DNA of 64,000 nt from Candidatus Nanoarchaeia archaeon (lineage in GTDB: Archaea > Nanobdellota > Nanobdellia > Woesearchaeales > ARS49). The stretch covers positions 78,092-142,091 of the forward strand of contig JBGPOY010000003.1 of NCBI GenBank assembly GCA_041488275.1, written 5' to 3'. The notes beneath the pieces are model-generated. The model was not told where the DNA came from. It was given only the letters and a program-made list of their open reading frames with translations, and ran no database searches. Numbering within the stretch: the stretch's first letter is position 1; each line of letters starts with the position of its first letter. This document shows, piece by piece, positions 15,934-57,852 of the stretch. A program made the position numbers and the translations under genes.

Positions 15934-16027
15934 AGTCGCATCTGCCGAAGCGGGGTATTTAAAGATTGTGAAGCACGGTTTCGACGGAAATTCATATATA
16001 CCTCCGCCGTGCGCACGGAAACGGGGT

Positions 16028-18922: not shown

Positions 18923-18955
18923 GCTCGAGAAAAGCGCTCGCGTGCTATATAATGG

Positions 18956-19824: not shown

Positions 19825-19911
19825 ACGTGCACTGCTGAGGTCGCGGTATAAAAAACTTGTGAACACAAAAATTTTTATATCACCTGCGCTCTTAAGGAAA
19901 CGGTGACTTCA

Positions 19912-20079: not shown

Positions 20080-20082
20080 CGC

Positions 20083-20466: not shown

Positions 20467-20471
20467 GGTGC

Positions 20472-39711: not shown

Positions 39712-39773
39712 ACCTCGCTCTCGTTTTGTTTCGTATTTAAGTATGCGTAACTCCTCAATCGTGGAGAACACGT

Positions 39774-39911
39774 GAGCGAAGGTCACCGCTCGCTCGGCCC
39801 GTCGCCCAGAAACGCAAGCTGCCCAAGCCGTTTGGTTCGTCGCAGCGACGGAGAAGCGCCGAGTTCTTGGCCGTCACTGCTGCCTCGCTCGCAGATTGGT
39901 GACCTTCGCTC
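39774..39911. repeat. Perfect 14-nt inverted repeat (GAGCGAAGGTCACC ... GGTGACCTTCGCTC) enclosing 110 nt
   Basis: Arms at 39774-39787 and 39898-39911, in the 268-nt divergent intergenic region. Confidence 0.7.
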
Positions 39912-39979: not shown

Positions 39980-40465
39980 ATGCTCTCGGCGTTCCTGAAG
40001 AAACTCTTGTTCGCGCGCCAATTGTTCATGACGGACGGCACCATCGAGATTCTGGGAAAAAAGCAGATTATGCTTCCTTCTGACATCATCGTCGCGCTCC
40101 AGAGCCTTGACGAGAAACGCTACTACACGCTCATCAAAGAAGGTGTGAAGACCAGTCTCGGCGATTACGCCCACAAAATCGGCTCCACGAATGAGGGCAT
40201 GATGCGCATCACCGAAGACATTTTCGAGACGTTCGGGATGGGCAAGCCCGAAATCGCGGTGCTCGACCAAAAAAAGCGTTCGGCCGTTGTCCGGTTCCAT
40301 AACCCTCCGGTCGCCGAAGCGTGCGCGGACAACAAGTTCAAGGACTGCGTCCTGCTTCCCGCCGCGCTCGCGGGCATGTTTTCATTCCTGTTTGCAAAAG
40401 ACGTGAACTGCGACCTGACTCAGTGCAACATCAAAGGCGCGGTTTGCGAGTACGTGGTGAAATGA
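39980..40465 (+). CDS. V4R-domain (4-vinyl reductase-type) small-ligand-binding protein
   Basis: LFARQLFMTDGTIEILGKKQIMLPSDIIVAL, with the C-terminal Cys pattern C...CNIKGAVCEYVV typical of V4R. Confidence 0.75.
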   Translation: MLSAFLKKLLFARQLFMTDGTIEILGKKQIMLPSDIIVALQSLDEKRYYTLIKEGVKTSLGDYAHKIGSTNEGMMRITEDIFETFGMGKPEIAVLDQKKRSAVVRFHNPPVAEACADNKFKDCVLLPAALAGMFSFLFAKDVNCDLTQCNIKGAVCEYVVK

Positions 40466-42990: not shown

Positions 42991-42991
42991 C

Positions 42992-44518
42992 ATGACCATC
43001 GCAACCCTTCCCGCATTCCAGAACCTCATTCGAGGCAAGTCCGTCTCGATGAGCGGCAGGCAGTTTGAAGCGCGCAGCGCGTTCTTCCCTGACTACGCCG
43101 TGCTTGCGACGGATTCGGATGAGCGCGACCTCGAGCGCGCAATCTCCATGACCAAGCGGGGACAGCAGGAACTCGCAAAGCTCACGTTCGAGGACCGCGA
43201 GCGCATCCTGAAGGACGCAAGTACGCGCCTGAAGTTCGACGACGCGGACATCGCGCACTGCGTGCAGATGATGGGCATGCCGTGGAATTCCGTCAAGGAC
43301 TACATCAAGATGATTCCCTTCCTGATGGACGGGATGCCCGGCACCGTGCGCACCATGATGGATATTATCGACGGCGTTCCCGGGTACACGCACCCCGCCA
43401 TTCCGGGCGTTGAGCTGAAAGTGCCGCACGACGGATTCGTGTACGGCGTGATTCCGAGCAACGACCCGCGCGCGACGCTGTTCGTTTTCTCTTTCCTCGC
43501 CGTTGCGGGCGTTCCCGCGGTTCTCAAGGTCAGCAAAAATGAGCTGCCGGTCGCGTACAAGGTCGTGCAAGCCGCCCTCGACGCGGGCTACCCGAAGGAA
43601 GCCGTCAGCGTTCTCACGTGGGATACACGCGATACCGACCGAGCAACCGCATTGCACTTCAAACTCGCCAAAGAAGCCGCTCGCACGGTCGCGTTCGGTT
43701 CCGACGACACGATTGACAACCTGCTCCGCTATGAGCGAAAAAACGTCATCGACCCTACGAGACTCGCGCAGTACCAAGGACAGCAGGTGAACCAAACGCT
43801 GATTGATTCGCTGACGGAAAACATCGTCGTTACCGACCTCGAAGGGCGGCTGATGCGGCACACGTCCGGCAACTGCGCGATGATTGTCACCGAAAGTGCC
43901 GACCCTCTCAAGGCGGCAGAACTCATCATGCAGTCTGCGTATCATTATCCCATCAGCTGCAAGTCGCTGAAAGCGCTCTACGCTGTCGGCGCGGCGCACG
44001 ACGTCCTGCTGAAAGTGCTTCCTGACCGCGTGAAGGGTTTGCTCGTCGGCAATCCGATGACGCCCGGCGTTGAAGTCGGCTACGTCGACAAGGAACTCCT
44101 CGACCAGACGCTGCCGCGCATGCAGGAACTCAAAGGGCTCGGACACGCGGACATCCTCGCGGGCGGCGACCGCGCGGGACCGTATCTGGCAAGCCCGCTC
44201 CTCGTCGCGGCGCACAACCCGACGTCCGACGGACTGCTCAACGAGCACTCAATGTACTTGTGCACGATGCGCCGCTGCGATTCGCTTGCGCAGGCAGTCG
44301 ACGAATGCAATCTCGCGGCGACAAAACAGCCGCGCCTGTCCGTCAGCGTCGTGACCGGCGACTCGCCCCAAGCGCGCGCCGAAGCGCGGCAGTACGAAAC
44401 GCGCATCAAGGCGGACCTCGTCCACGTCAACCAAGTCACGAATTTCCTGCACGGCGCCATTCATCAGGGCTATAACTACGTGCACGCTCTGTGCCGGACG
44501 CGGAGCGTACGGCGATGA
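42992..44518 (+). CDS. Aldehyde-dehydrogenase-superfamily protein (LuxC-like acyl-CoA/acyl-enzyme reductase candidate)
   Basis: 508 aa with ALDH-like segments (AGVPAVLKVS; candidate catalytic Cys in HTSGNCAMIV). It is paired with the adenylate-forming enzyme. Confidence 0.7.
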   Translation: MTIATLPAFQNLIRGKSVSMSGRQFEARSAFFPDYAVLATDSDERDLERAISMTKRGQQELAKLTFEDRERILKDASTRLKFDDADIAHCVQMMGMPWNSVKDYIKMIPFLMDGMPGTVRTMMDIIDGVPGYTHPAIPGVELKVPHDGFVYGVIPSNDPRATLFVFSFLAVAGVPAVLKVSKNELPVAYKVVQAALDAGYPKEAVSVLTWDTRDTDRATALHFKLAKEAARTVAFGSDDTIDNLLRYERKNVIDPTRLAQYQGQQVNQTLIDSLTENIVVTDLEGRLMRHTSGNCAMIVTESADPLKAAELIMQSAYHYPISCKSLKALYAVGAAHDVLLKVLPDRVKGLLVGNPMTPGVEVGYVDKELLDQTLPRMQELKGLGHADILAGGDRAGPYLASPLLVAAHNPTSDGLLNEHSMYLCTMRRCDSLAQAVDECNLAATKQPRLSVSVVTGDSPQARAEARQYETRIKADLVHVNQVTNFLHGAIHQGYNYVHALCRTRSVRR

Positions 44519-44979
44519 AGACCAAGCACCTCTTCGTCCCGCTGCTGGACGTCGGCGAAGTGCTGCCGTTCGCGGTGCGCAAGACCGAAACGCTGCAGGA
44601 AAGTTTCACCGAACAGGACCGCGCCAAACAGGCGCTCGTCAAGTTCGTGGACCAGCTGGAGCGCAAGCTCAAACAAAAAGTGTATTATATGGGTCTCGAC
44701 GTTATCGGTGAAAAAGCCTATGAACGGTTCATTTTTGACAAAGGAGGGTTCCTCGAAGTGATGGTGGAGAGTCCGGTCGCGCTGAACGCGCATTTCGTGC
44801 ATGAACTGCAGGCAAAAGCGTTTGCCAAGGCGCTGAAACTCGCGCTCACGGGCGCGCTGCCGAAGAGTCCGACCTCACAGCTGCTCATCGACAGCGTCGA
44901 AGTCCAGAACCAGGACGACACGAGTCTCACGGTCGAGAAATGGCACAAGCTCAAGGACATCCGCGAGGGAACCGCATGA
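44515..44979 (+). CDS. Hypothetical protein (154 aa)
   Basis: ATGA overlaps at both ends (44515 and 44976). No recognisable motif. Confidence 0.7.
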   Translation: MKTKHLFVPLLDVGEVLPFAVRKTETLQESFTEQDRAKQALVKFVDQLERKLKQKVYYMGLDVIGEKAYERFIFDKGGFLEVMVESPVALNAHFVHELQAKAFAKALKLALTGALPKSPTSQLLIDSVEVQNQDDTSLTVEKWHKLKDIREGTA

Positions 44980-45773
44980 ACATCACCCGCGTCAAGTCAG
45001 GCATCAGGGGTTTCGACGAGCTTGTCCAAGGCGGCATCCCGCAGGGCAGCAGCGTCGTCGTGTGCGGCACGCCCGGCACGGGTAAGACCATCTTCGCGCT
45101 CGAATTCCTGTTCCGCGGCGCCACCGAGTTCAACGACAAGTGCCTCTACGTCACGTTCGAGCAGACCGTCGACGCGCTCAAACAGCAGGCGTCGATGTTC
45201 GGCTGGAACCTCGAGCCGCTGCTGAAGAGCAAGAAGCTCGAAATCTGGAGCATCCCGATTGACGACCTCGACCACACGGTCGGCGACACGATTCTCGGCT
45301 ACGTCAAGACGAAGAACATCAAGCGCCTCGTCGTCGACTCGCTTTCGACGCTGGCCATCAACGCGCCGATTTACCAGCCGGTCAAGGACATCGCGCTGGT
45401 CGACATCATGAAGCAGAAGTCGTTCTTCTCGCCGCCGATTCTCGGCGACATCATCGTCCGCAGGTACATTTATTCGCTCGTCAACGAACTGCAGCACGTG
45501 AAACACTGCACGACCCTGCTCATCTCGGAGGGGACGAACGGCGGCGAATACCTGACCCGCGATACGGTCTCGGAATTCGCGAGCGACGGCATCGTCCACC
45601 TCGCGTTCGAGAGCGTCGCGTCAGGATACGCGAGAAGCATCACCGTGCGCAAACTGCGCGAAACGAAAAACGATCCCAACACGCACCCGCTGGAAATCGC
45701 AAAGACGGGAGTCGTGGTGCACAGCATCGTGCGCCAATACGGCGAACCCGACCGTGACGGCGTGTACCGCTAG
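44976..45773 (+). CDS. Single-domain KaiC-like ATPase, intact Walker A
   Basis: VKSGIRGFDELVQGGIPQGSSVVVCGTPGTGKT and LVVDSLS motifs. Confidence 0.9.
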   Translation: MNITRVKSGIRGFDELVQGGIPQGSSVVVCGTPGTGKTIFALEFLFRGATEFNDKCLYVTFEQTVDALKQQASMFGWNLEPLLKSKKLEIWSIPIDDLDHTVGDTILGYVKTKNIKRLVVDSLSTLAINAPIYQPVKDIALVDIMKQKSFFSPPILGDIIVRRYIYSLVNELQHVKHCTTLLISEGTNGGEYLTRDTVSEFASDGIVHLAFESVASGYARSITVRKLRETKNDPNTHPLEIAKTGVVVHSIVRQYGEPDRDGVYR

Positions 45774-46224: not shown

Positions 46225-46890
46225 ATGACCATCAAGACCGGCTGCGCGGCCGTCGACCGCATTCTCAACGGCAAACTGCCCGACAAGACCGTCGTGCTCA
46301 TCGAGCGCGACACCGGCATGAAGGACAGCCTCGAGCGTTTGTTCCTCCACAACAGCGTGAAGGCGAAAAACGGCGTCGGGTATTACGCGTTCTTCAACCA
46401 AACGAACAAGGATATCGAGAGCGCGTTCAAGGACCAGGGGCTGGACGTCACGCGCGAGATGAACGAGAAGCGCCTGTACTGGATTGACGAGAGCAACCAT
46501 TCCGAGGGCGAGAACGCCATCAACTGCAAGATTGACGAGCTGTTCACGGTCGAACTGGCGATGCTCCAGCTGCTCGAGAGCAACAAGGACAAGAAAATCC
46601 GCGGCGTCGTGCACCTGCTGACGCCGGCGCTCATCGCGAACGAGCCCGTATTGATTTACCAGTTCTTCTCGTACTTAGTCTCGACGCTGAAGAAGTACAA
46701 CACGCTGACCATCTTTCTCATCGAGCAGAATTTGCACGATGCAACCACCCTCAAGGCGATTGAGGGGCTGTGCGACGTCGTGCTGGAGACCAAGCTCGCG
46801 CAGGAAGACTTTGTCGTCAAGACGCTCGTGCGCGTCAAGAAGATGAAAGGCAACTCCGACACCAAGTTCCACGCGCTCCACGTTGCGTGA
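46225..46890 (+). CDS. KaiC-fold paralogue lacking the P-loop (predicted inactive)
   Basis: IKTGCAAVDRILNGKLPDKTVVLIERDTGMKDS aligns with the KaiC N-terminus, but GxxGxGKT is replaced by ERDTGMKD. Confidence 0.7.
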   Translation: MTIKTGCAAVDRILNGKLPDKTVVLIERDTGMKDSLERLFLHNSVKAKNGVGYYAFFNQTNKDIESAFKDQGLDVTREMNEKRLYWIDESNHSEGENAINCKIDELFTVELAMLQLLESNKDKKIRGVVHLLTPALIANEPVLIYQFFSYLVSTLKKYNTLTIFLIEQNLHDATTLKAIEGLCDVVLETKLAQEDFVVKTLVRVKKMKGNSDTKFHALHVA

Positions 46891-46893
46891 GCC

Positions 46894-47475
46894 ATGGCCG
46901 TAAGTCTCCGCGCCGAACTGAGAAGTCTTCCCGAGAACTACATGGTTCTGCTGATTCTCAATGTCAAGCAGTACTTTGAAGGCGTCATTGAAGTGCTCCG
47001 AATGCTGTGCAACGAGGAAAACCTTCCGGGAATCTACATCACGGTGAACAAGCCGTACGGCACGATGAAGGAACTGCTGCGCGACCGGGGCGTCAACACC
47101 TCCCGCATCTTTTTCATCGACGCCATCAGCCAGACCGTGACGCAGCCGAAGCTCACGAACCATCAGGTCATTTATCTCCCGAACCCGCAATCGCTCACGG
47201 ACCTATCGCTCGCGCTCAATGCCGCCGCGACCGCGCTCGAAGGCAGCAAGAAATTCCTGTTCATGGACTCGCTGTCGACGCTGCTGATTTACAACGAGAC
47301 CGAAAGCGTCGCCAAGTTCGCGCACTTTCTCACCATCAAGATGCGCTCGCTGAACATCAAGGGAGTGCTCATCGCGCTCCGCCAGATGCTGGACGAAGAG
47401 CTGATTTTTGAGGTTGCGCAATACTGCGACCGCGTCATCGACCTTTCTTCCGAAGTTATTGAGCTTGACCGCTAG
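46894..47475 (+). CDS. P-loop-less RecA/KaiC-like paralogue (family shared with 53951 and 54547)
   Basis: GIYITVNKPY...RIFFIDAIS...LTDLSLAL...FLFMDSLSTLLIYN are shared with the two downstream paralogues. Confidence 0.7.
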   Translation: MAVSLRAELRSLPENYMVLLILNVKQYFEGVIEVLRMLCNEENLPGIYITVNKPYGTMKELLRDRGVNTSRIFFIDAISQTVTQPKLTNHQVIYLPNPQSLTDLSLALNAAATALEGSKKFLFMDSLSTLLIYNETESVAKFAHFLTIKMRSLNIKGVLIALRQMLDEELIFEVAQYCDRVIDLSSEVIELDR

Positions 47476-47513
47476 ACGGCAAGGTTTATGAACGCCGGCG
47501 CTTCCCTACGGCT

Positions 47514-47888
47514 ATGAAAAAAGGAGGGCAGGTCTCGGTCGAAGCGCTGTTCTCTCTCGGATTTATCGCGCTGATGTTCGGCACGATGCTGCTGTACTCG
47601 TACGAACGCCAGCAAGACCTTCGCACGGCGCGCACGGCAGCCGTGCGGCTGAACGACTGCCTCTCGGTCACGACCGCAATCATCGGACTGCTCGTAAATA
47701 GAGGCGGCACGGCGAACGTCACCGTGACGAACCGCATCGCCGTCAAGTCCGCTGCGCAGGTCGTCGAAGCGGGCGACGATGTTCCGTGCCGGCTTGCTAC
47801 GTCCGCAGTCACGAGCGGCGTCTTTGAGCCGGGCAGGCTTGTCTTCACGTCGCTTCCGAACGGCACCGTCGAGGTGTCGCATGCGTAA
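47514..47888 (+). CDS. Prepilin-like protein (class III signal peptide)
   Basis: MKKGGQVSVEALFSLGFIALMFGTMLLY. Confidence 0.7.
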   Translation: MKKGGQVSVEALFSLGFIALMFGTMLLYSYERQQDLRTARTAAVRLNDCLSVTTAIIGLLVNRGGTANVTVTNRIAVKSAAQVVEAGDDVPCRLATSAVTSGVFEPGRLVFTSLPNGTVEVSHA

Positions 47889-48357
47889 AGGGCAGATATT
47901 CAGCACCGACTTGCTGGTCGCGCTCGCAATCACTGCGCTGCTTTGGGGCTCGCTCGTCTTGGAGTTCCACTCATTCGAGCGCAGAAGTCAGGACGCGGAA
48001 ACCACGCACGCGCTCGAACTGCAGGCGATGCAAATTGTGGACCAGCTTACGCTCTCTCCCGGCGTTCCGTCGGCATGGGAAACGACCGGCGGCGCGCAGG
48101 CGCTCGGACTTGCGCAGACGCCGAACGTGCTTTCCAACGAAAAACTTGCCGCGTTCTTCGCGCTTGCTCCCGACGAGATTCGAAACCAGCTCAATATTCC
48201 TCCGCACCGCTTCCGATTCCGGATTCTTGCTTCCGACGGAACGCCGCTCGCGTCCGTCGGAGACCTTGATTCAACGAGAAAGACTCCCGTCATCGCGCTG
48301 CGGCGCCCGGCAGTAACCAATGCAACAACGACTATCGTGGAATTTACCCTGCAATAG
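47881..48357 (+). CDS. Prepilin-like protein (class III signal peptide)
   Basis: MRKGQIFSTDLLVALAITALLWGSLVL. Overlaps the upstream gene by 8 nt. Confidence 0.75.
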   Translation: MRKGQIFSTDLLVALAITALLWGSLVLEFHSFERRSQDAETTHALELQAMQIVDQLTLSPGVPSAWETTGGAQALGLAQTPNVLSNEKLAAFFALAPDEIRNQLNIPPHRFRFRILASDGTPLASVGDLDSTRKTPVIALRRPAVTNATTTIVEFTLQ

Positions 48358-48373
48358 AAACCGGCGCGGCGTG

Positions 48374-48760
48374 ATGCTGAGCCTCGACGCCACGCTCGGC
48401 GTCATTCTGGTTATCACCCTGCTCATCGCAGCAGACGTACAGATGCGCCACGCGAGCGAGGACTCATTGAGCTCCCTAAGCGTCGCGCAGTTCGGCGGCG
48501 CGGCAACCGCGACGCTCGACAAAACAGGCGTCCTCGCAACTCGGGACGCAGGAAGTATTGAAGCCGCGTTAACTCCTCTTCTCCAAGCAAATGTCGCGAT
48601 GCGGATTGCAGTGATGTGCGACGGCGGAACTAATCTCGCGACGAGCGCAACGATTCCTTCCAAACAATTCATCGCATCAGGAAAACGATACTTCGTGGTG
48701 ACCTCGGGAAATTCCATCGATGACCGGTGTGCCGCGACGTGGTGGGCGTGGACGCGATGA
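48374..48760 (+). CDS. Pilin-like accessory protein with an N-terminal hydrophobic helix (atypical signal)
   Basis: MLSLDATLGVILVITLLIAA. It lacks a basic-Gly cleavage motif if the ATG at 48374 is used. Confidence 0.55.
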   Translation: MLSLDATLGVILVITLLIAADVQMRHASEDSLSSLSVAQFGGAATATLDKTGVLATRDAGSIEAALTPLLQANVAMRIAVMCDGGTNLATSATIPSKQFIASGKRYFVVTSGNSIDDRCAATWWAWTR

Positions 48761-49554
48761 AACGCGGCGTGCTGCTTGCGTTGGGAAGTTTCTTTGTCGT
48801 TACTGCACTTTTCGCGTTTGCACTATTCATCGCGTCCCAGCAGAATGCGCACGACAAGCACGCAGTCCAGCTCGCCGCGCTCGAGCGCACTGCCGCGGTT
48901 GAGGATTCCGTGCTGAGTTCGCTTGGCGCGGTCTGGAACGCGACCGCGGGAATGAGCGTCGATGGCGGCGCAGACGACGTGACCGTGCACGATTCGCTTC
49001 CCGCCTCCGGAGTTTTGTCGTCGGAAATCAGCAATCTCAACACCTTCATCACGGCGCAGGATACCAACGTGCACATCGACATGAATGGAAACGCCGGCAC
49101 GCTCGCCCTGCCCGACGGCGTCACGTACGCGCGCACCGCCGACCGCCAAGTGACGGTCAACGCCGCGCCTCTGCCCGGCAATCGCTATGCGGTCACCGTC
49201 ACGGTCGGCGCGAACATCACGTCCTGCGCCGAAAGCGTGACCGCGGGAGCGTTCGAGCTCGCCGTGCGCGTGGACGGCGCGGGCGGAAGCGACTGCGTGA
49301 AAGAGCTCGGCGTCGACTCCGCCGCAAACAACCGCGTCGCCATTGGCACGGACGCGGGAACGATTGATGTGGACTTGAATGCAACCACGCTCATCATCAG
49401 CAGCGCGCCGGACATCGAACTCGCGACCCAGCTGCGGTACAACCGCACCTCTGGCCAGCGAGGCGAGGCGCGGCTCATGAACGTGCAAGCGACTGTCGCG
49501 ATTCCGAATCTGAAATTGGTGCGAACGGATACGCCAATTGTGGCAGTGTGGTGA
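48757..49554 (+). CDS. Prepilin-like protein (class III signal peptide), larger subunit
   Basis: MKRGVLLALGSFFVVTALFAFALFI. ATGA overlap with the upstream gene. Confidence 0.7.
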   Translation: MKRGVLLALGSFFVVTALFAFALFIASQQNAHDKHAVQLAALERTAAVEDSVLSSLGAVWNATAGMSVDGGADDVTVHDSLPASGVLSSEISNLNTFITAQDTNVHIDMNGNAGTLALPDGVTYARTADRQVTVNAAPLPGNRYAVTVTVGANITSCAESVTAGAFELAVRVDGAGGSDCVKELGVDSAANNRVAIGTDAGTIDVDLNATTLIISSAPDIELATQLRYNRTSGQRGEARLMNVQATVAIPNLKLVRTDTPIVAVW

Positions 49555-49582
49555 CGTGAACAGCTGAAGCCGTTTGGTCGTT

Positions 49583-49627
49583 CGTTGTGCAGTTCAGAAT
49601 TACGACGTACGACAATACTGCCTGGGC
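49583..49627 (+). repeat. Copy C of the conserved roughly 46-nt intergenic element
   Basis: CGTTGTGCAGTTCAGAATTACGACGTACGACAATACTGCCTGGGC, located 29 nt 3' of the pilin operon. It carries a 1-nt deletion relative to copies A and B. Confidence 0.8.
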
Positions 49628-49653
49628 AGAGCGATAAGAGCGCGCGTTTCCTC

Positions 49654-49660
49654 TTTTTTT
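49654..49660 (+). terminator. Oligo-T tract (T7) after the pilin operon and repeat copy C
   Basis: CCTCTTTTTTTGCG. Confidence 0.45.
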
Positions 49661-49722
49661 GCGTAACTACCATTCTTGAATGGTGACGAATGCTTTTAAG
49701 TATTCTTAGGGAAGGTCTGACT

Positions 49723-50277
49723 ATGTTAGACAAACGGCTCATGAGGGACGTCAGCGACCTTCTTGAGCTGAACGTAGGGGATGAGAAGATTGTCCGCATC
49801 ATGATGGTGCGGGGCTTCACGACCGAGCAGGTGAAGCGGGTCATCAAGGACATCCGCTCCAAGTCCGGCACCAAACACGAGCCGGTGGCGCATCACAAGA
49901 GCGCGCCGGTCACGGAAACCATCGAGAACAGCCCGAGCAAGCGGTTCGGCATTCTGGGCAAATTGTTCGGCAAGCAATCTGATGAAGAAATGATTGCGGA
50001 AGAGACCGCCAAGCTCGTGAAGCAGGAACAGCACTTGAAGAACGAGGAGGCGAGAGTCCACGCCGAAGTCCAGCAGCTGGTGCAAAAGGCAAAGTCGTTG
50101 GAAGGCCAAGAGCCGAAACACGCGCGCTCGCCCGCGGGCATTCCTGACGACGTCAAGGACGTCCTGCATATTGTCGACGGTTTGTTGGAAAAACTTCCCG
50201 ATACTGAAATCGAACGGTTCACGCAGTCACCGCAGTTCGAACGCTACAAAGCGGTGATGAAGAAATACCTCGGCTGA
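49723..50277 (+). CDS. Hypothetical coiled-coil protein
   Basis: The start was set at MLDKRLM, about 25 nt downstream of the TATA-like CTTTTAAGTATT. The longest ORF starts at 49690. Confidence 0.6.
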   Translation: MLDKRLMRDVSDLLELNVGDEKIVRIMMVRGFTTEQVKRVIKDIRSKSGTKHEPVAHHKSAPVTETIENSPSKRFGILGKLFGKQSDEEMIAEETAKLVKQEQHLKNEEARVHAEVQQLVQKAKSLEGQEPKHARSPAGIPDDVKDVLHIVDGLLEKLPDTEIERFTQSPQFERYKAVMKKYLG

Positions 50278-50296
50278 CGCGGCCGCGGGGGGAAAT

Positions 50297-50560
50297 ATGG
50301 GTCTGCTGAAGAAAGCTGAACTGCAAAGTACGAAGGGTGCGGGAGTACGAGACGACCGCGTTGAGACCGACATCGACCGGCTGTACGCGCTCGTGCTCGA
50401 GAAAGCGCCGCTGAAGCTCGGAGCCGCCGCCGTGTTGCTCGGCAAGCGCCGCGAACTCGTCGAGGACTGGGCGCGCACGCTCGAAGCCGCGTCGCTCATC
50501 AAAATCCACTACCCCGCCGTCGGGGAGCCTGAGCTGGAGCATCCGAATGGACGTCGTTGA
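50297..50560 (+). CDS. Small hypothetical protein (possible wHTH), N-terminal GLLKKAE motif
   Basis: 87 aa. Overlaps the ATPase gene by 14 nt. Confidence 0.55.
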   Translation: MGLLKKAELQSTKGAGVRDDRVETDIDRLYALVLEKAPLKLGAAAVLLGKRRELVEDWARTLEAASLIKIHYPAVGEPELEHPNGRR

Positions 50561-52043
50561 GGAATATCTCGTTTCCGCCGAGGGCGCGACCGCGAACGTC
50601 ACGATTCGCGGAGAAGGAACCACCGCGCGCACGTACGACGTCTCCATTCCGCGCATCGCCGCGGGAACGCAGGCATTGCTGGAGGACATCAAGCGCCAGC
50701 TCGCCGCGACGCTGAGCGTCAGTCCGGCGGAACTGCTCGACAACAACGCGGTCGCCTCGCTCAAACAGAAAGTCGCGATGGACGCGCGCACCATGCTCAC
50801 GGCGCGATTGCCCGAAACGCAGGAGCAGCTGCGCGATTTGCTCGTTACTTCAATTCTCAACAGCACGCTCGGCTTGGGCGACATCGAATACCTGCTCAAC
50901 GACCCCGTGCTGGAAGAAATCGTCATCCCCTCGGCAAACGCCCGCGTGCGCGTCTACCACAAAAAGCACGGCTGGCTGGAAACCAATGTTGTCGTCTCGA
51001 GCGAGCAGCAGGTGCAGAACTACGCGAGCATCATCGCCCGAAGAGTAGGCAAGCAAGTCACGACGCTCACGCCGCTGCTTGACGCTGCGCTCACGACCGG
51101 AGACCGCGCGAACGCCGTGCTCTATCCCATCTCGAGCAAGGGCAACACCATTACCATCAGAAAGTTCGCGCGCGAGCCGTGGACGATTGTCGACCTCGTC
51201 ACCAACGGCACGATTTCGTCCGGCGTCGCCGCCCTCCTGTGGACCGCGATTCAGTACGAAATGAACATTCTTGTCTCGGGCGGCACGGCGTCGGGAAAAA
51301 CGTCGCTGCTCAACGTCATGCTCGCGTTCATGCCGCCCAACCACCGTATCCTGAGCATCGAGGACACGCGCGAACTGCAGCTGCCCGACCATCTGTTCTG
51401 GGCGCCGCTCACGACACGCGCGCCCGGTCCGGAAGGCGAGGGCGAAGTCACGATGCTCGACCTGCTCGTCAACGCGCTGCGTATGCGCCCCGACCGCATT
51501 GTCCTCGGAGAAGTGCGCCGCCAGCGCGACGCGGAAGTGATGTTCGAGGCGATGCATACCGGCCACTCGGTATACGCGACCGTCCACGCGGACTCGGCGC
51601 AGGAGACCATTCGCCGGCTCGTGTTCCCGCCCATCAGCGTGCCGCCGAACCTCCTGCAGGCGGTGAACCTCAACGTCGTGATGTTCCGCGACCGCCGCAG
51701 GGGAATCCGCCGCGTCTCGCAGGTCGCCGAATTCGTGACGGCGGAAGAAGGCGAACGCGTCACGGTCAAGCCGAACGTCATTTACCGCTGGCTTCCGGAC
51801 GAGGACACCATCGTTCCGTTCAACAACAGCCTCCGCTTCTTCGAAGACCTGTCGCGGCACACCGGACTCACGCAGGACGACATCACCGCCAACGTGATGG
51901 ACCGCAAGGCGGTGCTTGACTGGCTCGTGCAGACGAAACAGCGCGACCTCGCGTCCGTCGGGAGAATCATGCAGGAATTCGCGCTCGACCCCGCCAAGGT
52001 CATCAGGCAGGCGCGCACCGCGCTGAAGCGTTCCGAGGGATAA
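50547..52043 (+). CDS. Type IV pilus/archaellum-type assembly ATPase (FlaI/ArlI/PilB, GspE-VirB11 superfamily)
   Basis: Walker A VSGGTASGKTS, SIEDTRELQL, RPDRIVLGEVR and HTGHSVYATVHA motifs. Confidence 0.95.
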   Translation: MDVVEEYLVSAEGATANVTIRGEGTTARTYDVSIPRIAAGTQALLEDIKRQLAATLSVSPAELLDNNAVASLKQKVAMDARTMLTARLPETQEQLRDLLVTSILNSTLGLGDIEYLLNDPVLEEIVIPSANARVRVYHKKHGWLETNVVVSSEQQVQNYASIIARRVGKQVTTLTPLLDAALTTGDRANAVLYPISSKGNTITIRKFAREPWTIVDLVTNGTISSGVAALLWTAIQYEMNILVSGGTASGKTSLLNVMLAFMPPNHRILSIEDTRELQLPDHLFWAPLTTRAPGPEGEGEVTMLDLLVNALRMRPDRIVLGEVRRQRDAEVMFEAMHTGHSVYATVHADSAQETIRRLVFPPISVPPNLLQAVNLNVVMFRDRRRGIRRVSQVAEFVTAEEGERVTVKPNVIYRWLPDEDTIVPFNNSLRFFEDLSRHTGLTQDDITANVMDRKAVLDWLVQTKQRDLASVGRIMQEFALDPAKVIRQARTALKRSEG

Positions 52044-52925
52044 ATGCGGCTTCCCGTGACGCTGCTCCCGGGGCTGGCGCTCCACCGCATTACCACCCCG
52101 CTCACGGGCGTCGCGAGCGGTCTTGAAATCGCGTTTCCTTTTCTGAAGCTGCATTTGCGGCACGCGGACATCAAAATGAGTTCCGCGGAATATCTCGCGG
52201 CAAACATCGTGTCCAGCGCGGTTTTCGGCGCTGCGGTATTCGCAATCGCGCTGTTCGTCACCTTGACTGCAGGTCTCACTCCGCCCCTGCTCATTTCCCT
52301 CGGCGCGGGGTTGATTATCGCGGTGCTGGTCTGGTTCCAGAATCTGCTCGTTCCGAAAGCGCTCATCGCGAAGAAAGTTTCGAGCCTCGAACGCAACCTG
52401 ATTCCCGCGCTGAGCGACATGCTCGTGCAGCTGCACTCCGGCATTCCGCTGTTCGACATTCTCGTCAACATCGCGAACGGCGATTACGGCGCGGTGTCCA
52501 CGGAGTTCAAGCGCGCCGTGCGCCGCATCTCGTCGGGAGAAAGCCAGGTGTCCGTGCTTGAAGAACTCGCTACGGGAAACCCGAGCGTGTTTTTCCGACG
52601 CCTCCTTTCCCAAGTCGTCAACGCGCTGAAAACAGGAGCAAGCATCAGTTCCGTCCTGACGGACGGCATCACGCGGCTGAGCGATGAACAGGTCATTCAA
52701 ATCCAGAAGTACGGCGGCTACCTCAACAGTCTGACGATGTTTTACCTGATGACCGCGGTCATCGCGCCCGCGCTGCTGATGACCGGCGCGGTTGTCCTGT
52801 CGTTCTTCTTTTCCGTGACGCCGTTCTGGACCGCCATCGGATTTGTCGTCATTTACTTCATGGTCGTCTTCATCCAGGTCGCGTTCCTCGGCATGCTGCG
52901 CACGCGGAGGCCGAACCTGCTGTGA
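52044..52925 (+). CDS. T2SS-F-domain platform protein, first half (TadB/FlaJ-like)
   Basis: 293 aa with 3-4 TM helices flanking a cytoplasmic helical domain (LIPALSDMLVQLHSGIPLFDIL). Confidence 0.85.
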   Translation: MRLPVTLLPGLALHRITTPLTGVASGLEIAFPFLKLHLRHADIKMSSAEYLAANIVSSAVFGAAVFAIALFVTLTAGLTPPLLISLGAGLIIAVLVWFQNLLVPKALIAKKVSSLERNLIPALSDMLVQLHSGIPLFDILVNIANGDYGAVSTEFKRAVRRISSGESQVSVLEELATGNPSVFFRRLLSQVVNALKTGASISSVLTDGITRLSDEQVIQIQKYGGYLNSLTMFYLMTAVIAPALLMTGAVVLSFFFSVTPFWTAIGFVVIYFMVVFIQVAFLGMLRTRRPNLL

Positions 52926-53863
52926 GACCGCACGGACTCCGCGCACGGTTTGCGATGGCGTTAGATCACGCAGGGTTGCGCGTGCGCGTCGGAAGGTTCC
53001 TCGGCACCACCGCGATGCTGTCGCTGGTCGCGGGAATTATCGTCGGGATGGTTGCAGCGCTGCTCGGGCAGAGCGGCTGGCTGTTTGGGGTGGGCGCGTT
53101 TGTGCTCGGGGAAATCGGCTGGGCGTTCTGGCTCGTGCTCCGCGCGGACGCGAAATCCCAGTTCATTGAAAGCGTGCTTCCCGACGCGATGGACCTGATG
53201 GCCGCGAATTTGCGCGCCGGACTGACGACCGACCGCGCGTTGCTGCTCGCCTCCCGGCCGGAATTCGGACCGCTACAGGAAGAGCTCGACCGCGCCGGGC
53301 GCGAAATCGCGCTGGGGAGAAGCGTTCCGGACGCGCTCGCCGCCCTCGGCGCGCGCATTTCCTCGGAGCGCGTGCGCAAGACGCTCGCCCTCATCATTTC
53401 CGGGCTGCGCTCGGGCGGCAGGCTCGCGGAACTGCTGTCGCAGGCGTCGCTCGCGCTCAAACAGCAGACGGTCGTGGAGCGCAAAGTCGCGAGTACCGTG
53501 ACCGTCTACGTGATTTTCATTTTCACCGCGGTCGTGCTGGGCGCGCCGTTTTTGTTTGCCGTGAGCGCGTTCCTGACCGAAACGCTTTCGGGAATTATCG
53601 GGAACATTGACATCAGCGACGTGCCTACGGGATTTCTTCCCGGAGTGACGCCCGGCGCGGGGCTTCCGCTCGAAGCGGTCACGATTCTTGCGGTCGCGCT
53701 GCTGCTCACCATCGGACTGGTCTCCTGCTTGGTCGCCGGACAAATCGGGACGGGCAGAATGCGATCCGGTGTCAAATACGCGCCGTTGGTGCTGCTCAAT
53801 GTCGCGCTGTTCTTCCTCATTCGCTGGGGGCTGAAGGCGGGATTGGGCGTCCTTTTCGGGTAA
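52922..53863 (+). CDS. T2SS-F-domain platform protein, second half (TadC/FlaJ-like)
   Basis: 313 aa with LPDAMDLMAANLRAGLTTDRAL. GTG start overlapping the upstream stop. Confidence 0.85.
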   Translation: MRPHGLRARFAMALDHAGLRVRVGRFLGTTAMLSLVAGIIVGMVAALLGQSGWLFGVGAFVLGEIGWAFWLVLRADAKSQFIESVLPDAMDLMAANLRAGLTTDRALLLASRPEFGPLQEELDRAGREIALGRSVPDALAALGARISSERVRKTLALIISGLRSGGRLAELLSQASLALKQQTVVERKVASTVTVYVIFIFTAVVLGAPFLFAVSAFLTETLSGIIGNIDISDVPTGFLPGVTPGAGLPLEAVTILAVALLLTIGLVSCLVAGQIGTGRMRSGVKYAPLVLLNVALFFLIRWGLKAGLGVLFG

Positions 53864-53950
53864 GCAAGATTTATAAAGCGCCCGTGCATTAAGCACGGTA
53901 AAAAGGGTGTAGTATGAACGTCACGAACCAAGTGCGTTCCTGGGGGAGTT

Positions 53951-54520
53951 ATGGCTGAGAACATCCTAAAGACCCTGCAGGACAACAAGATTGTGTTGTT
54001 TATTTCTTCGCAGAACTCTCACGCGGATACGCTGGCCGAAGTCGCCCGTCAGGCACAGCGCGTGTATGCCGCTCTGGCCATCATCAGTTACCGCACGACA
54101 TCAGGGGCGCTTGAAGCCGCGCTTTCCAAAGCGGGCGTCAAGACCAAGAACTGTTTCTTTCTTGACCCGCTGACGGGCAACGCAAAAAAAGCGTCGGCAA
54201 ACACCCTGCTCACGTCATCACCCGCAGACTTCACTGAAATGGGACTGAGCATCAGCGAACTGCTCAAGACGGGAAACTTTCCCTTTGTATTGTTTGACAG
54301 CCCCGCGGCAATGCTGCTGTACCAAGACCACGAAACCGTGCTGCAATTTATGCACAGCATCATCACCAAATGCCGCGTCGCGGGCATCCAGCTCGCGTTC
54401 GTTGCCGTCGAATCCGCCGCAAGCCAGGAATTAATCAAGGACCTGCACTTGTTCGTCGACGACGTGCTGAACCTTGAGGAAGGAACGACCGGCGCCCGCC
54501 TTGTCGAGGCGTTCAAATGA
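53951..54520 (+). CDS. P-loop-less RecA/KaiC-like paralogue
   Basis: ALAIISYRTT...CFFLDPLT...FTEMGLSI...FVLFDSPAAMLLYQ. Same family as 46894 and 54547. Confidence 0.7.
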   Translation: MAENILKTLQDNKIVLFISSQNSHADTLAEVARQAQRVYAALAIISYRTTSGALEAALSKAGVKTKNCFFLDPLTGNAKKASANTLLTSSPADFTEMGLSISELLKTGNFPFVLFDSPAAMLLYQDHETVLQFMHSIITKCRVAGIQLAFVAVESAASQELIKDLHLFVDDVLNLEEGTTGARLVEAFK

Positions 54521-54546
54521 GCCTGCTGCAGGTCAGGTGAGCGAGC

Positions 54547-55092
54547 GTGGCGGGGATGGAGCTCAGCAAGGAACTGCAAGGACTCGCGTCCGCGTTCAGC
54601 ATGCTCGTTATCACGTCCACCCGTAAACTGGGCGACGCCACGACGGAAGTAATCGACTATTTCACGCGCCAAGGAACGCCCGGCGTGCTGGTGACGTTCA
54701 GCAAGCCCCATCAGGCGCTGGTGGAACAGCTGCACCGCCAGCATATCGAAACGTCCCGTCTTTTTTTTGTCGATACCATTCCCGGAACAGGCCGCGAGCG
54801 CGAGGACAACGCGCTGCACGTGCAGAGTCCGAGCGCGCTGACCGACATCAGCATCGCAATCTCGCAGTTCGCCCACAGCGTCCCGGGCGATCGCTTTGTG
54901 TTCGTGGACGCCATCAACGCGCTGCGCGCGTACAACGATGACGCGGACATTGAGCGGTTCGTCGGAGCCATCGCGGCAAAAAGCGCAACGCTCGGATTGA
55001 AAGTCGTTCTCATGTATATCCGAGACCCCGCGCTCGAGAGTTTGGAGCGCACCGTCTATCAATTTTTTGAGAAGGTGGTCGAACTTGGCTAA
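54547..55092 (+). CDS. P-loop-less RecA/KaiC-like paralogue
   Basis: GVLVTFSKPH...LFFVDTIP...LTDISIAI...FVFVDAINALRAYN. GTG at 54547, with the ATG at 54556 as an alternative. Confidence 0.7.
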   Translation: MAGMELSKELQGLASAFSMLVITSTRKLGDATTEVIDYFTRQGTPGVLVTFSKPHQALVEQLHRQHIETSRLFFVDTIPGTGREREDNALHVQSPSALTDISIAISQFAHSVPGDRFVFVDAINALRAYNDDADIERFVGAIAAKSATLGLKVVLMYIRDPALESLERTVYQFFEKVVELG

Positions 55093-55381
55093 CACGCTCA
55101 CCGCCGCCGTGCTGATTGCGGTCCTGCTGCTGCAGGCCGCGACCGTGCTCTTTGCGTACCGCGCGTGGCGCAGGACCGCGGGCGGACTGCGCACGTTCGT
55201 CGTGCTGCTGCTCATCGCGGGATTCCTGCTGATGCTCCGCACCGTCGTGCATTCCGCACGTTATTTGCTGGGGCTGAACTACATCGCGCACGTGTTGGAG
55301 CACATCATCATTTTCGCCGCATTCGTCGTGATGACCGCGGGCGCGCTGCTCATGCACCGGCTCGCAAAGGGGATGACCTGA
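55067..55381 (+). CDS. Small membrane protein (3 TM helices)
   Basis: Uses a TTG start (55067 or 55085). It overlaps the preceding gene. Confidence 0.5.
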   Translation: MRRWSNLANTLTAAVLIAVLLLQAATVLFAYRAWRRTAGGLRTFVVLLLIAGFLLMLRTVVHSARYLLGLNYIAHVLEHIIIFAAFVVMTAGALLMHRLAKGMT

Positions 55382-55932
55382 TGATTGACGCAGCGCTTGC
55401 CGGAACGTTGATTTTCAATTTGACGTACGCGACTATCGCGCTCATCATTGTCATTCTCGCAGGAAAAACAATGCTGTACTTCCGCGTCAGGAAGTCGCGG
55501 TTCGGCACGATTCTCCTGCTGTTAATGCTGATGATGTTCTTGTTCCTGATCGCGGAACTGTTCCATTTGGCCGACATGCGGGGCGCGCTTGCGCAATCAG
55601 AACTGTATTACAGCATCACGTCCGTCGCGGGGTTCATTGTATTTGCGCTGCTGATGCAGCGCATCCAGGCATTCAGCCAGAGCGTCGGCTTTGCGCAAAG
55701 CGATTTTGCGATGGCGCTGAAAGTGCAGAACCAGCTGTGCACGGTTTGCCGCCGAGTCTCGCTCAAGGTTCCCGTGTCGACGCTGCTGAAAGAAAACATC
55801 ATCACGCCCGACGGCACGCTGAAAGAGGGCGTGACGGTCGAGCAGCTCGTTGACCGCGGCATGGCGGTGCATCCTCCGCACACCGCTCCGGCAAAAACCG
55901 CTTCCGCCAGAAAAAAGAGGCGCAGCAAGTGA
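55381..55932 (+). CDS. Membrane protein (4 TM helices) with a basic C-terminal tail
   Basis: The start was trimmed to MIDAALAG (TGATG junction). Contains the CTVC pair. Confidence 0.65.
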   Translation: MIDAALAGTLIFNLTYATIALIIVILAGKTMLYFRVRKSRFGTILLLLMLMMFLFLIAELFHLADMRGALAQSELYYSITSVAGFIVFALLMQRIQAFSQSVGFAQSDFAMALKVQNQLCTVCRRVSLKVPVSTLLKENIITPDGTLKEGVTVEQLVDRGMAVHPPHTAPAKTASARKKRRSK

Positions 55933-56957
55933 CCGACAGCGAGGAAGCGGTCCAAGGCGTTGAAGTTCCTTCCTTTGACAAGCCGCGCAAGAAAGGGCTG
56001 CTGAAAAAAGCGGAGGGCGTCAAGAAAGGTCAGGACGCCGCGGCGGATGACATCGTGAAAGCGCGCGCCGCGGAACTGACCATCGAAACTCCGCAAGAGG
56101 CGCGCGAAGAACGTTCTGAAGTTCCCGCCGCGTTTGACATGGCCGCAATCAAGGAAGCGATTGAGTCACGGCTGAAACGCAGGGAAGGACCTTCCGAAAT
56201 CTCGCTGGAGACCGGCAACGTCATCCCGGGAACCGAAACCGGCGAAGCTCGGCGCAAGGATTCAGTAATCGAACGCGTTCCCTCGGGCATTCCCGGTCTT
56301 GATAGTCAAACCGAGGGCGGCTTCGTGAAGCGGAGCATCAATCTCGTGACGGGAAGCCCGGGCGCGGGCAAAACCATCTTCGCCGCGCAGTTTATTATTT
56401 CGGGCATCGAACAGCATCAGGAGCCGGGTCTCTACATTTCTTTTGAGGAGAAAAAAGAGAATTTTCTCAAGTACATGAAACAGTTCGGCTGGGATTTTGA
56501 GAAGCACGAAAAAACAAACAAGTTCGCGTTTCTCCGCTACAGCCCCGAGCAAGTGCACAAGCTGCTCACCGAAGGCGGAGGCCTGGTCGACACGCTCGTG
56601 CGCAAGCTGGGCGTGAAGCGCATCTGCATCGACAGCATCAGCGCGTTCACCCTGCTCTTCAAAGACGAGCTTTCGGCGCGCGAATCTCTGCTGGGACTGT
56701 TCGAGATGATCGAGGGATGGGGCGCAACGACGCTCCTGACCGCGGAGCAGGAAGCGGAGCCCGAACGCCACGAACCCAGCGTCGTTGAGTTCGAGGTCGA
56801 TTCCGTCATTTCCCTGTACAACTTCCGCAAGAAGAACATCCGCCAGCGCGTCGCCGAAATTATCAAGATGCGCGGCACCCGCTTTGCGCAGAAGGTCTTT
56901 CCCATCAAGATCGGGGACGACGGGATGGTCTTCTATCCGGAAGAAGCGGCGTTTTAA
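55929..56957 (+). CDS. KaiC-like ATPase, intact Walker A, with a roughly 110-aa charged N-terminal extension
   Basis: VPSGIPGLDSQTEGGFVKRSINLVTGSPGAGKT and ICIDSIS motifs. The extension contains KKGLLKKAEG. GTG start (GTGA overlap). Confidence 0.9.
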   Translation: MTDSEEAVQGVEVPSFDKPRKKGLLKKAEGVKKGQDAAADDIVKARAAELTIETPQEAREERSEVPAAFDMAAIKEAIESRLKRREGPSEISLETGNVIPGTETGEARRKDSVIERVPSGIPGLDSQTEGGFVKRSINLVTGSPGAGKTIFAAQFIISGIEQHQEPGLYISFEEKKENFLKYMKQFGWDFEKHEKTNKFAFLRYSPEQVHKLLTEGGGLVDTLVRKLGVKRICIDSISAFTLLFKDELSARESLLGLFEMIEGWGATTLLTAEQEAEPERHEPSVVEFEVDSVISLYNFRKKNIRQRVAEIIKMRGTRFAQKVFPIKIGDDGMVFYPEEAAF

Positions 56958-57270: not shown

Positions 57271-57852
57271 TTGAATAAAAAAGAGGGAGCTGCTAAGGTA
57301 CACCCTGCTCTGTCCAAAGAGCACGCTGACTTCTTACACAAGTATTACGCCAACGCCAGCAAGGAGGAACTCCTCGAAGCGTTCATCGCTCACCTCCAGA
57401 AAGAACACGCTCTCTCGAACGAAGAAGTCGACCACCTGCTGACCGAGGCAAAGCAGCACCAGGAAACCCTCCTCCCGGTGAATATCTTCCAGACCGAAGC
57501 TCTTTCTTCCCTTGAAGCCATCGTCAAGTACCTGAAGGAAAACAAGCACCTGTCCTTCCACGAGATCGCGGTCCTGCTGGCGCGCGACGACCGCACCATC
57601 TGGACGACGTACTCCAAGTCGCGCACCAAGATGATCGCGCCCTTCCATCTTCTGCCGAGCAAGCATGTCGTGCCTGCCGTGCTCTTCGCCGAACGAAGAC
57701 TGTCGGTTCTTGAGACGTTAGCTCACTACCTCAAGGACACGCTGCATCTGAGCCTGCACGACATCGCCACGCTGCTGAACCGGGATGACAGGACCATCTG
57801 GACCGTGTGCAGCCGCGCGCAGAAGAAACTCGCGAAGGGAGGTGCGCCATGA
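57271..57852 (+). CDS. Duplicated helix-turn-helix protein (two LuxR/sigma70-region-4-like HTH repeats), putative regulator
   Basis: LSSLEAIVKYLKENKHLSFHEIAVLLARDDRTIWTTYSKSRTKM and LSVLETLAHYLKDTLHLSLHDIATLLNRDDRTIWTVCSRAQKKL. TTG is the only start available after the in-frame stop at 57262. Confidence 0.65.
   Translation: MNKKEGAAKVHPALSKEHADFLHKYYANASKEELLEAFIAHLQKEHALSNEEVDHLLTEAKQHQETLLPVNIFQTEALSSLEAIVKYLKENKHLSFHEIAVLLARDDRTIWTTYSKSRTKMIAPFHLLPSKHVVPAVLFAERRLSVLETLAHYLKDTLHLSLHDIATLLNRDDRTIWTVCSRAQKKLAKGGAP

Follow-up and report, generated by a model that had tools for sequence, protein, structure and literature searches.

Introduction

A strong association with type IV pilus loci of archaea has been reported for KaiC-family ATPases, which are predicted to regulate them (PMC4858521). 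The KaiC-like protein CirA represses motility in Haloferax volcanii (PMC10983859), and nanohaloarchaea have pilus clusters that contain two kaiC genes (PMC9563170). DPANN archaea are thought to contact their hosts by pili (PMC9563170). A passage of PMC5847659, citing Makarova, Galperin & Koonin 2017, groups inactivated KaiC-like domains, including DUF835 and MEDS, under the name iKaiC and describes them as signalling output domains. Here we describe four KaiC-like genes, P1 to P4, in a 64,000-nucleotide stretch of DNA from a Candidatus Nanoarchaeia archaeon (assembly GCA_041488275.1, contig JBGPOY010000003.1, positions 78,092 to 142,091). This whole stretch is referred to as the window, and positions are given in its numbering. 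The region 46225–55092, which holds the four genes, is part of one long co-directional string of plus-strand genes that also encodes a FlaI-type secretion ATPase and two TadC-type platform proteins.

The products of P1–P4 are KaiC-like domains without a nucleotide-binding loop, and they are maintained by purifying selection. P2, P3 and P4 are best explained as members of DUF7504 (PF24336), a Pfam family without assigned function, of which our literature search gave no mention. P1 is best explained as a member of a different, KaiC-like lineage.

Results

P2, P3 and P4 as P-loop-less KaiC-like proteins

An initial annotation, made from the sequence alone, had described four P-loop-less relatives of KaiC and RecA as two tandem pairs on either side of a filament machinery. 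The four open reading frames (ORFs) are present on the plus strand, and the arrangement agrees with this description: the four pilin-like genes, the FlaI-like gene and the two TadC genes have P1 and P2 on their upstream side and P3 and P4 on their downstream side. Neither GK[ST] nor [AG]x4GK[ST] occurs anywhere in P1–P4. We found no cryptic intact Walker A in any of the four, and the finding that they have no nucleotide-binding loop stands. Fold recognition likewise identified the proteins as RecA/KaiC-like, P1 by its match to the Pfam KaiC family, P2 by a structure model and Foldseek, and P3 and P4 by their homology to P2.

BLASTP comparisons showed mutual homology of P2, P3 and P4 (E 1e-26, 4e-15 and 1e-14) at identities of only 23–27%, and calling them a tight family was an overstatement. 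The four sequence blocks said to be shared by them are found literally in P2 (4/4) and largely in P4 (3/4), but P3 contains only one of the four. Against PF24336, P2 scores above the gathering threshold, and P3 and P4 score below it (Table 1). A profile built from 108 homologues recognizes P3 at E 1e-40 and P4 at E 1e-46. P2 bears all signature residues of the family; P3 and P4 are fast-evolving members in which many of the family-conserved residues are lost.

The AlphaFold (AF2) model of P2, built on the 108-homologue alignment, has a predicted local distance difference test score (pLDDT) of 89.7 and a predicted TM-score (pTM) of 0.87. Searching this model against the PDB with Foldseek gave PH0284 as the best match (E 1.3e-7, TMq 0.73), followed by SSO2452, PH0186, KaiC and FlaH, and all of the best matches are KaiC-like RecA-fold proteins. 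By sequence, the DUF7504 family profile detects KaiC at E 2.8e-5 and FlaH at E 0.023, both aligned at the Walker B region.

Comparison with the intact ATPases K1 and K2 of the same locus revealed where the catalytic motifs are lost. Only one of 110 homologues contains a pattern of the [AG]x4GK[ST] or GK[ST] type, at an unrelated position. After strand β2, K1 and K2 read YVTFEQ and YISFEE, whereas P1 reads YAFFNQ, P2 YITVNK, P3 IISYRT and P4 LVTFSK; in DUF7504 as a whole, the position of the catalytic glutamate is an asparagine with at least 90% conservation. The Walker B aspartate is kept in P2–P4, and the corresponding D125 is invariant among the 108 sequences. P2–P4 end approximately 50 residues short of an intact KaiC domain and have no C-terminal KxRG hairpin, the structure that serves KaiC as a trans-acting arginine finger. 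Because both the P-loop and the hairpin are missing, P2–P4 are predicted neither to bind ATP nor to complete the active site of a neighbor in a ring.

D76, D125 and F142 are invariant among the 108 sequences, and 19 more positions are at least 90% conserved. Among these 19, Y27 begins the helix on which GK[ST] is normally found, and N52-x-P54 occupies the position of the catalytic glutamate. In the P2 model, the conserved residues Y27, N52-K-P54, D76 and D125-S-x-S-T locate, by secondary structure, at the C-terminal ends of the core strands, where RecA-fold proteins bind their ligands. The best explanation for P2–P4 is that they are DUF7504 proteins, in which a KaiC core appears to have lost the P-loop, the catalytic glutamate and the arginine-finger hairpin and to have fixed new residues at the strand ends.

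P1 and the KaiC-x proteins

P1 had been counted as a fourth KaiC/RecA-like paralogue, and our comparisons do not support its being simply another member of the P2–P4 family. P1 is a full-length KaiC domain, which matches Pfam KaiC (PF06745) over its whole length with 45.5 bits (cut-off 26.6). A search with P1 alone gave a full-length alignment with PH0284 (E 2.5e-4). A PDB profile search with the 8-sequence P1 alignment is dominated by intact KaiCs; it was set aside and the search with P1 alone used instead. Word-indexed homologue searches returned five relatives for P1 and three for P4.

In the alignment of P1 with K1, K2 and K3, the Walker A position reads ERDTGMKD, aligned to GTPGTGKT of K1 and GSPGAGKT of K2, as had been proposed. 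The catalytic glutamate after strand 2 is replaced by asparagine (YAFFNQT), and the Walker B aspartate by histidine (GVVHLLT), the latter in all P1 orthologues. The KMRG motif has become KMKG in P1 and is kept as KMRG by some orthologues. The losses at Walker A, the catalytic glutamate and Walker B are common to four orthologues of 67–84% identity. These orthologues read ERDPGM[KR]D at the Walker A position; since the Walker A lysine is even an arginine in one of them, P1 holds no cryptic P-loop. The V4R gene stands directly before P1 in the window and in the related loci L006–L009, with a 4-nt overlap in the relatives.

Outside its own clade, the best matches of P1 are proteins that we refer to as KaiC-x (E 2e-7 and 4e-7, vs 9e-4 for K1). 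KaiC-x proteins are encoded directly upstream of DUF7504 genes in five loci (L011 98–922, L013 9076–9897, L014 3382–4209, L017 7520–8335 and L019 4210–5070). They keep the P-loop, in a degenerate form in L019 (GEPGTSKT). Where KaiC has its catalytic glutamates, they read TN[RK][SP], similar to the TVNKP of DUF7504. These motifs suggest that ATP binding by KaiC-x is possible and hydrolysis unlikely. We also notice a basic-hydrophobic C-terminal tail on KaiC-x (e.g. KKKRFLGLFR), resembling an amphipathic membrane-targeting helix of the MinD type.

The DUF7504 profile gives KaiC-x 20–41 bits, P1 25.7 bits and canonical KaiCs 1–8 bits. The scores and motifs suggest a graded series from KaiC through KaiC-x to P1 and DUF7504, which have no P-loop; evolution would have run along the series in this direction. 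The best explanation for P1 itself is that it represents a further-degraded member of the KaiC-x lineage, which normally precedes DUF7504 in DPANN pilus loci.

P1–P4 are under purifying selection

Ratios of nonsynonymous to synonymous substitution (dN/dS) were calculated by the Nei-Gojobori method for the pairs L070 vs L071 and window vs L008. Between L070 and L071, the value is 0.14 for the P3 orthologues, 0.10 for the P4 orthologues, 0.085 for a second P4-like copy and 0.10 for the neighbor TadC2. Between the window and L008, it is 0.12 for P1 and 0.21 for P2, compared with 0.16 and 0.23 for the neighbors K1 and V4R. The P1–P4 range of 0.085–0.21 is similar to the values of TadC2 and K1. Reading frames are intact and lengths are kept in orthologues at 43–84% identity. 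The P3 orthologue in L070 occupies the same position with 43% identity, and the P4 orthologues in L070 and L071 show 62% and 58% identity. P1–P4 are maintained pseudo-enzymes and not decaying copies.

DUF7504 recurs beside KaiC and pilus genes across DPANN phyla

A profile search of 1.84 billion cluster representatives returned 887 matches at E<1e-30, 2600 at E<1e-10 and 4188 at E<1e-3, the weakest of which probably include true KaiCs. Among 108 family members, Pfam matches were DUF7504 for 106, KaiC for 92, DUF835 for 37 and DUF7090 for 25. Scanning one genome per species, a check of phyletic distribution that the initial annotation had proposed, gave 60 species-level DUF7504 loci. Almost all are from DPANN archaea (Micrarchaeota, Iainarchaeum / Diapherotrites, Woesearchaeota, Aenigmatarchaeota, Nanohalarchaeota and Altiarchaeota), and a few are from other archaea. 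The closest relatives of the window genes come from soil and other metagenomes.

We notice that L009 and L010, on contig DATILO010000018.1 of GCA_035476335.1, are labelled ‘Candidatus Binatia bacterium’. They encode archaeal-type SecE, Spt5-NGN, KaiC, V4R and DUF7504 proteins and are syntenic with the window. This contig is probably mis-binned or mis-classified.

For the neighbor counts, ORFs were called in all loci and searched with the window proteins. Of the 60 loci, 29 have a P-loop-containing KaiC no more than 2 kb from the DUF7504 gene. Twenty of the 60 have a FlaI-type ATPase gene at a distance of up to 10 kb, as do 15 of the 27 loci that are at least 15 kb long. Three gene orders recur. 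The first is KaiC-x – DUF7504 – small transmembrane (TM) protein – KaiC – h87-like – FlaI – TadC – TadC (L011, L013, L014, L017 and L019), in which h87 denotes relatives of an 87-amino-acid (aa) protein of the window. In the second, found in Aenigmatarchaeota, KaiC is divergent from DUF7504 and TadC-TadC-FlaI lie a few kb off. The third, h87 – FlaI – TadC – TadC – KaiC – DUF7504, belongs to Iainarchaeum. The window unites both positions, with P1-P2 before the pilins and P3-P4-TM1-TM2-K2 after TadC.

Other members neighbor signalling genes or are fused to signalling domains. L002 has the order PAS-membrane protein – DUF7504 – KaiC and also HisKA – REC – DUF7504. Fusions of DUF7504 involve an adenylate/guanylate cyclase, a weak KaiB together with V4R, WD40 or a second DUF7504 domain (proteins P0129, P0229, P0154, P0118 and P0189), and also DUF835 or N-terminal membrane segments; P0129 is a V4R-DUF7504 fusion. 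The tandem double DUF7504 domains recall the CI-CII arrangement of KaiC.

A small membrane protein is the most constant partner

The next same-strand gene after 41 of 72 DUF7504 genes encodes a protein of 100–125 aa with 2–4 predicted TM segments, and the two genes often overlap by 4 nt. Thus, the most constant partner of DUF7504 is a small 3-TM protein and not an ATPase. The cytoplasmic tail of these small proteins is conserved (..YGF.. or ..LGFAS..KKLKKILK), and a Pfam scan of the family gave no match. The pair is present even in loci with neither pilus nor KaiC genes close by (L001 and L004).

In the window, the counterpart of this pair is P4-TM1-TM2. TM1 orthologues in L070 and L071 are 36–47% identical, and phmmer searches with TM1, TM2 and V4R returned nothing beyond close relatives. 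In L070 and L071, two tandem copies of the P4-TM1-TM2 triplet separate the P3 orthologue from K2, and the P3 orthologue is itself separated from TadC2 by a polytopic membrane protein of 259 aa. These features lie at 3904–8992 in L070 and 5548–10465 in L071, and the window has neither of them. We regard the duplication of the triplet as a unit as good evidence that P4, TM1 and TM2 work together.

The tail of TM2 contains CxxC ... HxxH (e.g. LCTVCRR...VHPPH) in the window and in the two L070 copies (6077–6595 and 7444–7947). These residues may form a zinc-binding module.

Other genes of the locus

The genes of the locus are listed in Table 1. An intact KaiC had been placed next to each tandem pair. 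K1 and K2 are indeed near, but neither adjoins its pair, with the V4R gene between K1 and P1, and TM1 and TM2 between P4 and K2. The start of P4 in public gene calls is 54556. The K2 orthologue in L070 has the same position and 73% identity. A third intact KaiC, K3, which the initial annotation did not mention, is divergent from the operon start and faces the beginning of the plus-strand gene string.

Table 1. Genes around P1–P4, in window numbering.
Feature	Position	Strand	Evidence
K3, intact KaiC-like ATPase	38998–39786	−	Pfam KaiC 178.5 bits; Walker A present
V4R-like gene, first of the string	39980–40465	+	
FIST gene	40466–41764	+	weak NosP similarity
PaaK-like adenylate-forming enzyme, distant	41761–42990	+	
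Aldehyde dehydrogenase	42992–44518	+	precomputed LuxC match of an orthologue
162-aa protein	between aldehyde dehydrogenase gene and K1, within 39980–44979	+	
K1, intact KaiC-like ATPase, GTPGTGKT	44976–45773	+	Pfam KaiC 176 bits; alignment
V4R-domain protein, directly upstream of P1	45783–46220	+	Pfam V4R 32 bits (cut-off 31)
P1, full-length single KaiC domain, ATPase motifs degraded	46225–46890	+	Pfam KaiC; alignments
P2, canonical DUF7504, C-terminally truncated P-loop-less KaiC-like domain	46894–47475	+	PF24336 36.3 bits (gathering threshold 27)
Four pilin-like genes	47514–47888, 47881–48357, 48374–48760, 48757–49554	+	class III signal-peptide-like N-termini
Two small proteins (195 aa, 87 aa), upstream of FlaI-like ATPase	49690–50560	+	
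FlaI/VirB11-type secretion ATPase, type IV pilus system	50547–52043	+	Pfam T2SSE 123 bits
Two TadC/T2SSF-type platform proteins	52044–52925, 52922–53863	+	Pfam T2SSF 49.7, 57.8 bits
P3, divergent DUF7504 paralogue, several family-conserved residues lost	53951–54520	+	PF24336 25.9 bits (gathering threshold 27); family profile
P4, divergent DUF7504 paralogue, first gene of P4-TM1-TM2 triplet	54547–55092	+	PF24336 21.4 bits (gathering threshold 27); family profile
TM1, small 3-TM membrane protein	55109–55381 (start approximate)	+	translation; orthologues in L070/L071
TM2, 3-TM protein, cytoplasmic tail with ..SQxVGFA.. motif and CxxC...HxxH	55378–55932	+	
K2, intact KaiC-like ATPase, GSPGAGKT, N-terminal extension	55929–56957	+	Pfam KaiC 199 bits

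Upstream, the order V4R-like, FIST, PaaK-like, aldehyde dehydrogenase and 162-aa protein ahead of K1-V4R-P1-DUF7504 is also kept in L008/L009. The genes at 39980–44979 could be a small-molecule sensing or modifying branch that feeds the KaiC module.

The genes at 47514–49554 are candidate pilins. Their translated N-termini read KKGGQVSVEAL.., RKGQIFSTDLL.., RRGVMLSLDATL.. and KRGVLLALGSFF.., and a Pfam scan of the four proteins gave no matches. In most of the related loci, FlaI is preceded by a relative of the 87-aa protein. The FlaI-like protein scores 281 bits against NCBIfam FlaI, under the equivalog cut-off of 550, and scans of the locus proteins with Pfam and NCBIfam gave no match to archaellin, ArlF or ArlG. 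With the platform split into two TadC-like genes in addition, an archaellum was rejected, and the locus is a type IV pilus system.

Several further features of the window and its relatives were noticed. A short GLL[KR][KR]AE-like motif is common to the N-terminal extension of K2 (55929–56020), the N-terminus of the 87-aa protein (50297–50325), and the KaiC of L006 (11284-), with a further position in L070 (200-). Downstream of K2, the gene at 57271–57852 encodes a protein with two sigma-70 region 4 / helix-turn-helix-like repeats. It has an 81% identical counterpart at the same position in L070, occurs also in L006/L007, and is a candidate transcription regulator of the locus. In L006, an 8661-codon ORF (14033–20672) with no recorded Pfam match starts approximately 1.3 kb downstream of the KaiC module. 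The sole RNA genes detected in the window are two adjoining tRNA-Ala genes (anticodons GGC and CGC) on the minus strand at 2261–2430.

Discussion

We propose, at a probability of roughly 55%, that P1–P4 have no catalytic role and instead act as docking or regulatory subunits in a signalling module that is centred on KaiC, is tethered in part to the membrane and controls the pilus. P1–P4 would be inactivated KaiC-like (iKaiC) pseudo-ATPases retained by selection, through which sensor proteins (V4R and FIST) and the small membrane proteins TM1 and TM2 are coupled to K1 and K2. The signal would then pass through K1/K2 to the FlaI/TadC machine that assembles the type IV pilus. P1 would be paired with the V4R sensor, and P4 would be tethered at the membrane by TM1/TM2. 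A putative hetero-ring with intact KaiC is one possible form of such an adaptor; only 29 of the 60 loci have an intact KaiC within 2 kb, and P2–P4 are without the KxRG hairpin.

A role as regulators or adaptors in hetero-oligomeric rings had been suggested from the loss of catalytic motifs. The fold, the motif loss, the selection, the signalling context, and the linkage to KaiC and FlaI/TadC support this idea in part; the ring finds no support in the most constant partner, which is the small 3-TM protein and not an ATPase.

Several other observations weigh against our proposal. We infer all physical contacts from gene order and fusions. No intact KaiC lies within 5 kb in 31 of the 60 loci and no FlaI within 10 kb in 12 of the 27 long loci, so that DUF7504 is not tied to either. 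For genomes of ~1 Mb with a few such ATPases, the chance expectation of a few per cent for FlaI within 20 kb is an estimate and not a computed control. Within the window, P2 is followed by a pilin-like gene instead of a small TM gene, and P3 has no TM partner. TM2 resembles the canonical small-TM family only moderately (hhalign P 1.5e-4, over TM3 and tail), and the similarity of TM1 to that family is not significant (hhalign P 0.01). The structure model of P1, built on an 8-sequence alignment, is poor (pLDDT 59), and its KaiC-like Foldseek matches are weak evidence because that alignment included intact KaiCs.

One alternative is that P1–P4 serve the pilus motor as dedicated structural accessories. 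They would then be functionally analogous to ArlH/FlaH and dock directly on FlaI hexamers or TadC, instead of acting as adaptors in upstream signalling. FlaH is among the structural matches; of the 27 long loci, 15 have FlaI/TadC genes no more than 10 kb away, in most cases within one gene string; and P3-P4 come directly after TadC2 in the window and also lie downstream of it in L070/L071. We nevertheless consider this explanation unlikely. Many DUF7504 members are far from pilus genes, among housekeeping genes in L001 and L004 and two-component systems in L002, and the fusion partners are signalling domains and not pilus parts. Moreover, ArlH function needs nucleotide binding, according to a passage of PMC4858521 that cites Chaudhury 2016, and the P-loop is lost here; against NCBIfam ArlH (cut-off 215), the proteins reach 18 bits at most.

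On the other hand, the remodelled former nucleotide pocket may have become a binding site for a ligand or peptide, in which case DUF7504 would act as a sensor or receptor and not as a passive scaffold. Candidate ligands are a messenger derived from a nucleotide and the small TM protein's cytoplasmic tail. This alternative, which overlaps with the adaptor model, is in keeping with the location of the most conserved residues in the ligand region of the RecA fold, as placed on the P2 model. The Walker B aspartate is invariant despite the loss of the P-loop, there is one adenylate/guanylate cyclase-DUF7504 fusion, and the small TM partners have the conserved C-terminal ..YGF / ..LGFAS.. tail. However, the cyclase fusion is a single cluster representative, and P3 and P4 have lost several of the conserved residues, and the site would be absent from these two copies at least. 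We find such a sensor or receptor role improbable.

A decay of P1–P4 as functionless duplicates of the neighboring KaiC genes, which the loss of every catalytic motif and the high divergence of P3 and P4 might indicate, was rejected on dN/dS (0.085–0.21) and is extremely improbable, given also the intact frames and conserved length in orthologues and the hundreds to thousands of clusters with invariant residues across DPANN phyla.

Beyond the docking and regulatory role that we favor, a more speculative and rather doubtful extension is that DUF7504, the small 3-TM partner and a KaiC ATPase constitute an undescribed, DPANN-specific, membrane-anchored pseudo-ATPase/ATPase switch, which would gate type IV pilus assembly while the pocket reads a ligand or the partner tail. 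If true, the switch would thereby gate attachment to host cells.

The general idea, of inactivated KaiC in signalling and of a link between KaiC and pili, is already published, and the gain here is incremental. The literature searched, which did not cover Makarova et al. 2017, gave no account of the DPANN-wide spread of DUF7504, of its recurrent placement between two KaiC genes upstream of FlaI, or of the small 3-TM partner and the KaiC-x intermediate. Our comparisons show that a P-loop-less KaiC-like family recurs beside intact KaiC and FlaI/TadC across DPANN phyla, together with a conserved small membrane partner. The recurrent linkage and the membrane partner provide a concrete set of three or four candidate proteins for the regulation of DPANN pili. 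The series from KaiC through KaiC-x to P1/DUF7504 would show the origin of a pseudo-ATPase inside the archaeal KaiC signalling network.

Comparison with known systems

Like P1–P4, ArlH/FlaH (PDB 4yds) is a single KaiC-like domain encoded beside a FlaI-type ATPase, and FlaH is a structural match. In contrast, ArlH binds ATP via an intact Walker A and belongs to the archaellum operon, whereas P1–P4 have no P-loop. Against the NCBIfam ArlH/FlaH models, P1 reaches 18.1 bits (cut-off 215), P2 and P3 at most 19.3 bits (cut-off 194), and P4 has no match.

The CI domain of KaiC and the archaeal KaiC-like ATPases PH0284 (2dr3), PH0186 (2zts) and SSO2452 (2w0m) provide the best structural and sequence matches and share the fold and the Walker B region. 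P2–P4 differ from them in the loss of Walker A, the catalytic glutamates and the KxRG hairpin.

In Elp4/5/6 (PAXNEB) and the Rad51-paralogue complexes, RecA-fold subunits whose ATPase sites are degenerate work as parts of hetero-oligomers. By analogy, P1–P4 may likewise be impaired RecA-fold subunits that serve as scaffolds, and P1 has a weak PAXNEB match. However, this match is below the threshold (26.9 bits, cut-off 28) and there is no shared context, and the likeness is an analogy only.

Within PF24336, P2 lies above the threshold and 106 of 108 homologues match; P3 and P4, unlike these, fall below it and have lost many signature residues.

P1–P4 and iKaiC are both members of the KaiC superfamily with disrupted ATPase motifs in signalling contexts, and 37 of the 108 DUF7504 members cross-match DUF835. 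The signalling contexts here are the V4R and FIST genes in the window's gene string, the L002 neighbourhoods and the fusions. The HisKA-REC-DUF7504 neighbourhood parallels the REC-DUF835 fusions reported in a passage of PMC5847659. Unlike iKaiC, the proteins described here are stand-alone, mostly from DPANN archaea, linked to pilus genes and usually followed by a small 3-TM protein.

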